This document shows positions 31,030 to 34,635 of a stretch of 64,000 nt of DNA, piece after piece. Both the position numbers and the translations under genes were made by a program. Origin of the DNA: Eledone cirrhosa (Eukaryota); contig OZ024741.1 in the NCBI GenBank assembly GCA_964016885.1, positions 334,800,001 to 334,864,000 of the forward strand, given 5' to 3'. The notes under the pieces were generated by a model. The model saw nothing but the letters and a program-made list of their open reading frames with translations. It was not told the DNA's origin and did not search any database. How positions within the stretch are numbered: the first letter of the stretch is position 1; each line of letters starts with the position of its first letter.

Positions 31030-33780
31030 CTCCCCCATGAAGAATGCACCTCCCAACATAGCCTAGTAGTTAGTGACCTCATAGTCAGGAATAGACGTAC
31101 TCAACGACAGAAGAGGCCTACCTTGAGGAGAATATGGAAGTTGAAGGACTCCATAGCCAGTGACAAATTTAAAAGCTTATTACTTGATGCCTTTGACAAT
31201 AAGGAAGAGCAATTAGAGATGTGCGATATAGAGGAACAGTGGCAATTCTTGAAAGTGAACCTGCTGAAAGCAACGGATGAAGTCTGTGGCTGGAGCAGAC
31301 CTATTGGCAGGAGGAGAGTAACTTGATGGTGGAAAAGTAAGGTGGAAGAGACAACCAAGGCCAAAAAGCAGGCTTGGAAAGTATGGCAGGATGGAGGAAG
31401 TAGAGAGCACTATCAAGTGGCCAGGAGAGAAGCTAGGAGACAAGTGTATCTTGCAAAAAGGGTAGCAGAGGATAGAAAGTTCAAGCATGTTCTACAATGT
31501 GCAGACCAAAAATGTGAGGTGTTCAGGATTGCTAGACAATGTGTCAAGGAAAACCATGTGTCCGTAATGATAACGGTGTACTTGCGCTCACTGATACTGA
31601 TAAGAAGATAGCCTGGAAGTGTCACTATGAGAGACTATTAGATGAGGAGAATAAATGGGAAAAAGATAGTCTGCCCCAAATCGATCCAATAGAAGGACCA
31701 GCGGTGCAAGTTAAAGGTAGTATAATAAGTAAGGCAATCAAAGATATGAAGACAGGCAAGGCAGCTGGGCCTTCGGAGATAGTTGCTGAGATGTTGAAGG
31801 CATCTGGTATGGTGGGACACACTACGGTCACCCGTATAGTTAACCAAGTAATACAGAATGGGGTCATACCAAAAGACTGGCGTAGCAACATCATCATTAA
31901 CTGCTACAAGGGTAAAGGGGATGCTCTAGATAGGGGAAACTATAGAGGCATTAAGTTAGTTGACCAAGTCATGAAGGTCACAGAAAGAGTTATAGCGCAA
32001 ATAATCAGAGAGCGAATTGATCTAGATGAAATGCAGTTTGGGTTTGTGTCAGGTAAAAGTACCACAGACGCTCTTTTCCTTGTACGACAACTACAAGAGA
32101 AGTACCTAGCTAAAAGTAAACCCCTCTACTTAGCTTTTGTAGACCTGGAGAAAGCCTTTGACAGAGTCCCCCGCTCCATTATCTGGTGGGCTCTTAGAAA
32201 ACTAGGTGTAGATGAATGGCTTGTGAGAGCTATACAAGCTATGTATAATGAAACAGTCAGTAAGGTTAGAATTAACAATGAATATTGTGAAGAATTTAGT
32301 GTAAAAGTTGGCGTTCATCAAGGCTCTGTCCTTAGCCCTCTCCTATTTATTATTGCCCTTCAGGCTATAACAGAGGAGTTCAAGATCGGCTGCCCATGGG
32401 AACTCCTATATGCAGATGATCTAACGCTCATAGCTGAATCAATGGCTGAACTAGAAAAGAAATTCCAAACATGGAAGCATGGCCTAGAATCAAATGGTCT
32501 TAAAGTTAACTTGTCTAAGACTAAAGTTCTAGTTTGTAGAAAGGAAAATAGGGCACAGGTACCCTCAGGGAAATAGCCATGCTCAGTGTGTAGGAAAGGA
32601 GTAGGCAGAAATTCCATTTTATGTCCCAAATGCAAAGTATGGGTACATAAAAGATGTAGTGGGATTACAGGTAAACTATCTAAGAACGTAGACTTTATAT
32701 GTGGCCGATGCTCAGGTGCAATAAGTAGCAAGTGTCCACAGGATACTAGCTCCTTCTATTGCCCAGATGGTTCTATAGAAATAATAGACACTTTCCGTTA
32801 CCTGGGTGACGAAATCAGCAGTGGAGGAAGGTGTTCTGAAAGTACAGTAGCCAGAGTCAGAACGGGATGAAAAAAGTTCAGAGAGCTTATACCGCTGTTG
32901 GCTACAAAGGTTTCTCTCTAAAAATGAAAGGCAGATTGTATAATGCTTGTATACGAACAGCAATGCTACATGGTAGTGAGACATGGGCATTACGTGCAGA
33001 GGACCTGCGCAGACTGGAAAGGAACGAAGCATGCATGCTCCGTTGGATGTCTAATAGTAATATACATGAACAGCAAAGCATAAATGAACTAAGTGATAAA
33101 TTAGGAATAAGAGGGATCAGATGCTGTTTACTTGAGAGAAGACTACGTTGGTATGGCCACGTGATGCACATGAAAGATGACAGCTGTATAAAAAAGTGCA
33201 GGGTGATCAAAATTGATGGTAGTTACAGAGTAGGTAGACCCAGAAAAACCTGGGACGATCTAATAAATTCTGACCTTACACACTTGTACCTCTCTAAGAC
33301 AATGTCACTGGACCGAGATCTTTGGCGCTACACAGTAATACAGAAGACCTGCCTTGTCTATGTACAAAGCGAAACCTACAGTCAGTAGGCACCTCTTAAC
33401 CAAATATACACCACAATCCACTACCCCTACACTATCCTCTCACTCCCACCAACATCACCCTCTTTCTGCAAAGTTGGTACCACAACATCCAGTCCAAATA
33501 AATGAGATAATGAGATCAAGATTGTGTAGGTGTCACAACAAAAACACACAGTCCACGCTGTAATGTGGTCGTGTAGGTAACACGGTAAAAAGTTCCCAGT
33601 CCACACTGTAAATGTGGTTGGTGTTAGGAAGGGCATCCAGCCGTAGAAAACGTGCCAGATAGTCCTATATGAGCGAGACACGGTCACCCGACCAACCTTG
33701 ACTCAAATTGGGACAACCCCCGTCTAACCCATGCTAGCGTGGAAAATGGACGTTAAACGAAGATGATGAGATGATGATGA
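31030..33780 (+). mobile_element. RTE-clade LINE, 5'-truncated, decayed ORF (end of APE, RT, PHD-like finger)
   Basis: YKGKGD, NYRGIKL, QFGF, AFVDLEKAFDRV, GVHQGSVLSPLLF, LLYADD, FRYLG, HGSETW, RRLRWYGHV and GRPRKTW motifs. Stops and frameshifts near 31324, 31550, 32574 and 32870. (GAT)n tail. Confidence 0.93.
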
Positions 33781-33805
33781 TATATATATATATATATATA
33801 CATAT

Positions 33806-34106
33806 AATGTAGGAGGTGAGTTTTATTGTAGCACAATAAAGCAATGCAAATATCGGATAAGTAGCACTCTACAGTTTGTAGGATTGGAGTATAAATAATA
33901 TAAGATCAAAAGATGGTTAAAAGAGTTCCAAGTATTTTATGTTGATTTAAAACTTCACTGCTCACAAGTGTTTTTTAAGCTTCATATCATGTCTCCCTAT
34001 TTTATCTGATGAGAACGCAGATATCATCCCATGATGATATTTGTTTTTGAAATGCGCATAATAAAATACTTGGAACTCTTTTAACCATCTTTTGATCTTA
34101 TATTAT
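33806..34106. mobile_element. fold-back element with HHR
   Basis: Arms 33895-33940 / 34061-34106 with the HHR between them. TA-flanked. Confidence 0.8.
33998..34068 (+). ncRNA. minimal type I hammerhead ribozyme
   Basis: TATTTTAT-CTGATGA-GAACGCAGATATCAT...ATGATATTTGTTTTT-GAAA-TGCGCA-TA-ATAAAATA. Perfect 8 bp stem I and palindromic TGCGCA. Predicted cleavage after 34060. Confidence 0.87.
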
Positions 34107-34635
34107 ATATATATACATATACATCATCACCGTTTTACGTCCGTTCTTCCACGCTATATACACACATATATATATATGTGTGTGTGAGAGAGAGAGAAAG
34201 AGAAAGTGAGAATTTATATGATTAGGTGGATATTAATGCTTGCCTGTGTGTGTGTGTTAGCGCATGTGCGTTTGCCTGTGTGTTAGCATGTGTGTTTGTG
34301 TATGTGTATGATAATGTTTGTGTAAATTCATGCATGCTGATATGAAAATGCCCTCCGACATTATTGAAATACATAATAGAAATGCCCCCTCATGCATATT
34401 TCTTCTTGGCTAAGAGAAAAGTTTATCTCTCTCTCGCCTTTTCTGCCGAAATAATATTGTCAATTTGTGCACTTGAAGATTTTTTTGCAGACTACCTTCC
34501 AGTTGCATTAATCTTTCATGCAAGACTTGCCAATAAAATGGTGATCTTTTATGATTATAAGGGAGAGTGAGAGGGGAGGGGGATAGTGAGAGGAGGAGAG
34601 ATTAAGACAAAGAGAGAGAGACAGAGAGGGGGAGT

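Follow-up and report, generated by a model that had tools for sequence, protein, structure and literature searches.

The question raised by this locus, which lies in a 64,000-nt window of the Eledone cirrhosa genome, is whether an inverted repeat, one arm of which begins near the predicted cleavage site of a hammerhead ribozyme, records self-cleavage of the RNA from which it was copied. The locus is a single head-to-head insertion of a high-copy Penelope-like element (PLE) inside (TA)n, and comprises the following features (window coordinates):

33779..33805, no strand: left (TA)n target microsatellite, seen in the sequence and matched by (TA)n or (CA)n at the 3' end of 84 of 98 unselected arms
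33806..33889, minus strand: "tail" of the long arm, 84 nt in length and spanning family positions ~172–255, delimited with tandem copies L331 and L332, where the ORF starts ~80 nt further on
33890..33940, minus strand: the part of the inverted arm common to the direct arm, family positions 121–171, starting at +1 to +4 of the cut site
33938..33940, no strand: 3-nt junction microhomology common to both arms, from the arm alignment
33938..34111, plus strand: direct (short) arm, family positions –2 to 166–171, from comparison with family copies
33998..34068, plus strand: dimer-type hammerhead motif of type I, its stem II long and its stem III palindromic, from motif, fold and variants
34107..34121, no strand: right (TA)-rich target microsatellite, from the sequence

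Family position 1 corresponds to 33941, and the predicted cut falls between positions 120 and 121 (34060/34061); position 0 is counted, which puts position –3 at a distance of 124 nt upstream of 121. Comparison of the window with itself pairs 33890–33940 with 34061–34111 (51 nt, 98%), the match stopping at 33941, and the opposite-strand arm of the original prediction is thus real. Its tail, put there at ~90 nt, does run into (TA)n and measures 84 nt. That the arm begins precisely at the cut was overstated, while a start at the cut site fits. Directly upstream of 33941 the family sequence has TAT as its last three bases, identical to 33938–33940, and since these can be read as either arm, the inverted arm starts at 121–124 and the direct arm between –2 and +1; with three shared bases, the locus by itself fixes the inverted-arm start only within 4 nt. 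The direct arm starts one base inside the major template end of the family (position –3, likely the transcription start, see below), and four contig sets of unspecified kind, aligned to the locus, gave no information on RNA ends, although of the 15 joints shown among them 7 run to 33938, beside this major end. At the junction, an end of the –3 type meets one of the 121 type. Similar joins of –3-type ends are found with 118, 125, 126 and 130, so that cleavage of the template and AT-guided truncation could each account for the window locus; taken alone, it is ordinary. For its inverted arm we favor ordinary AT-guided truncation, and consider copying of a ribozyme-cleaved template a real possibility, if somewhat short of an even one.

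On either side of the insertion lies a 3' end of a different, very abundant repeat, the two in opposed orientation (33734–33779, plus strand, and 34122–34157, minus strand), both finishing in (GAT)n beside the (TA)n tract, the right one only ~35 nt long. Two pairs of direct repeats are observed ~1 kb downstream (34910–34983/35107–35180, 74 nt, 91%; 35049–35098/35174–35223, 50 nt, 92%).

The hammerhead core is formed by CTGATGA at 34006–34012 and GAAA at 34049–34052, with stem I comprising 33998–34005 and 34061–34068 (8 bp), stem II of 15 pairs, and an 8-nt palindromic stem III at 34052–34059. Motif and fold agree with the hammerhead at 33998–34068 as originally proposed, with predicted cleavage after A34060, where the NUH triplet ends. 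The region folds with a z-score of –3.04 (0 of 200 shuffles as stable), and in the predicted dimer fold two ribozyme copies pair their stems III intermolecularly. An Rfam search of the window yielded no family at the gathering score (0 matches), and the identity of this predicted ribozyme rests on motif, fold and stem-keeping variation: CUGANGA is retained in 220 of 245 arms, and 14 common variants retain pairing at 9 of 9 variable stem positions of a structure drawn from the window copy, by one-sided changes only, with no double changes. The G10.1–C11.1 closing pair of stem II is absent, being G–U in 2 and A–U in 12 of the 14 variants by our own pairing; related minimal hammerheads, according to the accessible text of PMC4209133, cleave poorly in vitro. 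No second ribozyme cutting at position –3 was seen on inspection by eye.

In the 3.0-Gb genome, an exact 31-mer from the arm is present 6,770 times, and a family with at least this number of arms provides a countable read-out of RNA template ends. The arms end in 3' at position 163–171 or ~254, usually one of each per two-armed insertion. Longer copies continue upstream via a 3' UTR of ~1.1 kb to an ORF, and loci with long open frames carry an ORF of 799 aa, starting ~80 nt past the tail and ~215 nt downstream of the cut, and linked to the same arms. In tandem head-to-tail units (L332 and L337), the ribozyme region is present both before and after the ORF. A protein search with the ORF gave 150 scored matches at 94–100% identity, the motifs YRDD and LIY...YFG were read by eye, and the nearest Atlas clusters carry GIY-YIG, RVT_1 or HTH_animal at 0.95–0.98; Pfam searches of the ORF and of its C-terminal piece produced no significant family. 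By these likenesses the product is a predicted RT/GIY-YIG-type protein, a single ORF with a C-terminal endonuclease. Tandem (pLTR) units are present, as are a neighboring inverted copy truncated in 5' and a tail at one of the ends, and the architecture is that of an endonuclease-positive PLE. A Cys-rich linker before the endonuclease recalls Neptune and Nematis as described in the available part of PMC8557442, a likeness by description that assigns no clade.

A 1.5-kb non-coding element was considered as parent and dropped, as the sequence upstream of –1305 proved to be the ORF end. A non-LTR retrozyme, i.e., short non-coding tandem repeats with a hammerhead per unit (tandem non-coding derivatives, in the accessible text of the preprint 10.64898/2026.07.22.740005), is ruled out by the opposed arms, the one ribozyme and the protein-coding parent. 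Among individual copies, L009 has an internal duplication in the 3' UTR (–818 to –443, ~190 nt, ~80% identity). At L294:3978–4846 a tail arm is joined, inverted, to an ORF fragment ending inside the ORF at a stretch that resembles the usual 3' end of the arm, possibly by mis-initiation of reverse transcription. Head-to-tail short arm pieces in L019:1118–1500 (positions ~118–166) and L420 (121–163, the unit starting at the cut site) suggest repeated template jumps.

For breakpoint rates we used an unselected sample, the first 100 listed places of the 31-mer (contig C1, 1.6–75.7 Mb), which gave 98 distinct arms; two initial DNA searches, which favor full-length matches, were left out. Of the 98 5' ends, 36 lie upstream of –10, 30 at –10 to +1, 28 over 2–117, 2 at 121, and 2 at 125–132, so that 94 arms reach upstream of the cut site. 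Two ends at 121 compare with 0.24 per position (p = 0.025, or 0.16 with a 3-nt window). The cluster resolves to –3/–4: among 66 arms spanning it, 16 begin at –3, 7 at –4 and 9 at –5 or –2 to +1, and 34 continue. Genome-wide matches to 19-mer patterns, which demand a mismatch just before the start and hence also count point mutations in longer arms, number 5,609 at –3, 288 at 121, 181 at 126 and, with only A or G allowed before it, 142 at 118.

By eye count, among the first 100 matches at –3 there are 38 with G before the start, compared to 18.7% expected (p = 5e-6), and the base at –3 stands in a TCA context that presumably resembles an initiator. Position –3 is likely the capped transcription start of the element RNA; this reading is only likely because some of the preceding Gs (22 cases) are also readable as partner sequence or as short repetitions of the bases with which the arm begins. 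An extra G is a mark of cap copying in full-length L1 insertions (PMC11702581, accessible text), and Drosophila Penelope has an internal promoter within the pLTR (PMC2377424, accessible text). In L120, L370, L379 and L131 one extra base stands beside the –3 end, as cap copying would give, in L120 on both arms.

A peak of breakpoints at the cut had been expected over all copies. The main sharp peak is instead ~124 nt upstream of it, and what is over-represented at the cut is hairpins with both arms starting there (121/121, 13 of 30). A pattern for hairpins with both ends near 112–126 is found at 70 loci (22 for the control), and of the 50 listed, examined by eye, 11 are unrelated TA-rich sequences, 9 are irregular, and 30 fall into ten classes with 2-nt microhomology. 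Among these matches the classes count 13 for 121/121, 7 for 119/122 (equally readable as a blunt 121/122 join), 4 for 118/121, 2 each for 119/119 and 112/126, 1 each for 112/121 and 121/126, and 0 for 118/118, 122/122 and 118/126. With equal weight per ordered pair, a crude null of our own that weights all microhomology classes alike, 1.9 hairpins of the 121/121 class are expected against the 13 seen (binomial p = 1e-8); within the four symmetric classes it holds 13 of 15 (p = 9e-7).

All 13 of the 121/121 hairpins have a long and a short arm each and their own flanks, with both main subfamilies represented; segmental duplication of one copy was rejected, as the flanks differ. Several carry a rare variant in both arms (L473, L476, L477, L101), as expected from one template, and two cDNAs that both copy one RNA to its end would give a symmetric junction. 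These observations suggest that a minority of insertions was probably copied from self-cleaved RNA. Among the first 100 of 196 matches on contigs C1–C8, the symmetric hairpins are 130/130 (4), 121/121 (4), 126/126 (1) and 127/127 (1), and position 130 lies at a 4-nt palindrome in the older subfamily.

Single arms give a weaker picture. A pattern for ends at 117–132 has 731 matches, and the first 100, after removal of 29 indels or deletions in longer arms, yield 71 ends: 4 at 117, 5 at 118, 4 at 120, 8 at 121, 5 at 122, 3 at 123, 5 at 124, 5 at 125, 6 at 126, 3 at 127, 1 at 128, 2 at 129, 15 at 130, 1 at 131 and 4 at 132. The count at 121 falls to 7 once L237, a 2-nt deletion, is removed; at 7–8 of 71 (p = 0.08–0.16 versus even spread) it is second to position 130, which is 9 nt downstream and used more. 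Positions 118, 121, 126 and 130 are all AT dinucleotides.

Over 1.18 Gb (C1, C2, and C3 to 317 Mb; covering the full 60 matches at 121 and 51 distinct ones out of 52 at 126), inversion arms number 22 at 121 (19 insertions) versus 9 at the AT control 126 (p = 0.015), or, by insertions, 19 versus 9 (p = 0.044), and with symmetric hairpins excluded 15 versus 9 (p = 0.15). Both counts were corrected by eye: the one at 121 is 18 automatic calls, less L406, with L415 and the two arms each of L347 and L362 added (L418 and L420 being other ends, and L354 left out as unclear); the one at 126 is 14 automatic calls, less L391, L397, L428, two of L438, and L442, plus L435, and leaves out several (TA)n-flank ends. 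At control position 118, restricted to A- or G-preceded matches, 7 of 30 are inversion ends (6 automatic calls and L450) versus 14 of 30 at 121 over similar spans. The single-arm excess at 121 is about 1.5- to 2.4-fold and uncertain. Repeats in stem I were considered as a cause of the junctions, and explain one 58/121 junction (L108/L368), not that of the window or the 121/121 junctions.

Several other explanations of these ends should be considered. As a general rule, the original prediction that the inverted arm is a cDNA of the ribozyme 3' product is wrong (30 of 98 unselected ends lie in the upstream cluster versus 2 at the cut), while for a minority class it is probable; the 121/121 hairpins and the window locus speak for such a rule, but with nearly all unselected arms extending upstream of the cut and the major end at –3 we regard it as highly improbable. 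The most serious competitor, although unlikely, does without cleavage: on uncut RNA, reverse transcriptase would halt at the stem III foot or at another point of the ribozyme fold, leaving both cDNAs to end at 120–122. Stem III adjoins the cut, starting at position 119, two bases upstream of 121, hence stalling and cleavage predict nearly the same genomic ends; the dimer fold pairs this stem between molecules, and the 130 peak coincides with the 3' foot of stem I, the place expected for a structural stop, although the palindrome explains this peak too. Polymerase stalls, on the other hand, usually spread over several bases, and ends spread in this way are expected under stalling, yet hairpin junction lengths among the matches listed pile up at 8 (13) and 9 (7), with none at 10. 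In favor of stalling, uncut RNA is the main substrate in vitro (PMC11167929).

Less probable still is ordinary microhomology, that is, random truncation and joining at AT dinucleotides with the ribozyme uninvolved at 121. It explains the single window locus, with its 3-nt microhomology, well, agrees with the ends at 118, 121, 126 and 130 (5, 7–8, 6 and 15 of 71), and is favored by the weakness of 2 of 98 ends at 121 once microhomology is allowed for (p = 0.16), but leaves unexplained the 13 hairpins of 121/121 type against none of 118/118 and 122/122, which have the same 2-nt overlap. We give even less credence to the element's endonuclease cutting its own cDNA or DNA copy at AT-rich sites, which would make the fixed ends –3 and 121: position –3 begins with ATAT, resembling the (TA)n target, and the enzyme of the anole element cleaves AT-rich DNA within that element's pLTR (PMC11167929), but the excess of G before –3 and the extra base on both arms of L120 fit cap copying, and 118, equally AT-rich, gives no 118/118 hairpins.

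The reading we prefer, at a probability of roughly 0.55, is that the junctions mark two template ends, the major one likely the capped transcription start and the minor one likely the ribozyme cut, and that a head-to-head insertion is made by two joined reverse transcripts. The endonuclease would nick (TA)n on both strands, each nick priming a cDNA from either of two internal start sites (positions ~171 and ~254); each cDNA would then proceed toward the RNA 5' end, full run-off ending at –3, or stop early, and the AT-rich cDNA ends would anneal by 2–4 bases. Most templates would be uncut RNA, and a few percent or less the ribozyme 3' product. At the window locus, one cDNA would have run to the major end, with the other stopping at the cut site or up to 3 nt from it. 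The two 3' ends per insertion and the (TA)n flanks match the anole element, for which two internal RT starts bounding the tail and cutting of AT-rich DNA on both strands were observed in vitro (PMC11167929). For that element insertion from uncut RNA, the main in vitro substrate, is equally good, cleavage is not required, and no RNA reads began at the cut site (PMC11167929).

The counts suggest that cleavage does occur, but as a side path, most mini-copies being run-off copies of the uncut RNA 5' end. They support an origin of head-to-head repeats by two-sided priming on a sense template; for these repeats the accessible text of PMC3846280 had argued self-priming on an antisense template. The stronger statement, that the junctions are a base-resolution record of templates (capped RNA at –3, 3' product at 121) and that the 121/121 class is fossil proof of germ-line cutting, with the element's protein still binding the cut RNA and making two copies of it, has in our estimate an even chance of being right. 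The architecture, the dimer-type ribozyme and the tail are already known. In a literature search that largely excluded subscription journals, no study was found that plots genomic 5' ends or breakpoints against the PLE hammerhead cut.

As described in the accessible texts of PMC8557442 and PMC3846280, endonuclease-positive PLEs share with this family an ORF with RT plus a GIY-YIG-type domain at the C-terminus, tandem units, head-to-head arms, a tail on a single arm, microsatellite targets and a hammerhead in the pLTR. The tail is 84 nt here versus 30–40 there, and the 3' UTR here is ~1.1 kb; also unlike those accounts, the major 5' end of the family falls on a single base and shows an excess of G, and a minor end coincides with the cut site. 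The predicted ribozyme resembles the minimal dimer-type hammerheads of animal PLEs (PMC4209133, PMC6765202, accessible texts) in being of type I, with a long stem II, a conserved core and a palindromic stem III that needs a partner, and differs from them in the 8-bp stem I, the 15 pairs of stem II and the closing G–U or A–U instead of G–C. Poseidon of the green anole (PMC11167929) is similar in its two RT starts bounding the tail, the AT-rich target, the mostly uncut template and the ribozyme upstream of the RT starts; its ORF, however, starts inside the ribozyme, whereas the one described here starts downstream of the cut, and it shows no RNA ends at the cut, whereas here a class of genomic copies ends there. 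Finally, if the minor class is what it seems, the family is similar to R2 in that the ribozyme cut is recorded as a 5' end of genomic copies, with the difference that in R2 this cut is the normal full-length end, while here a small fraction of copies ends there, and the usual end lies upstream of it.
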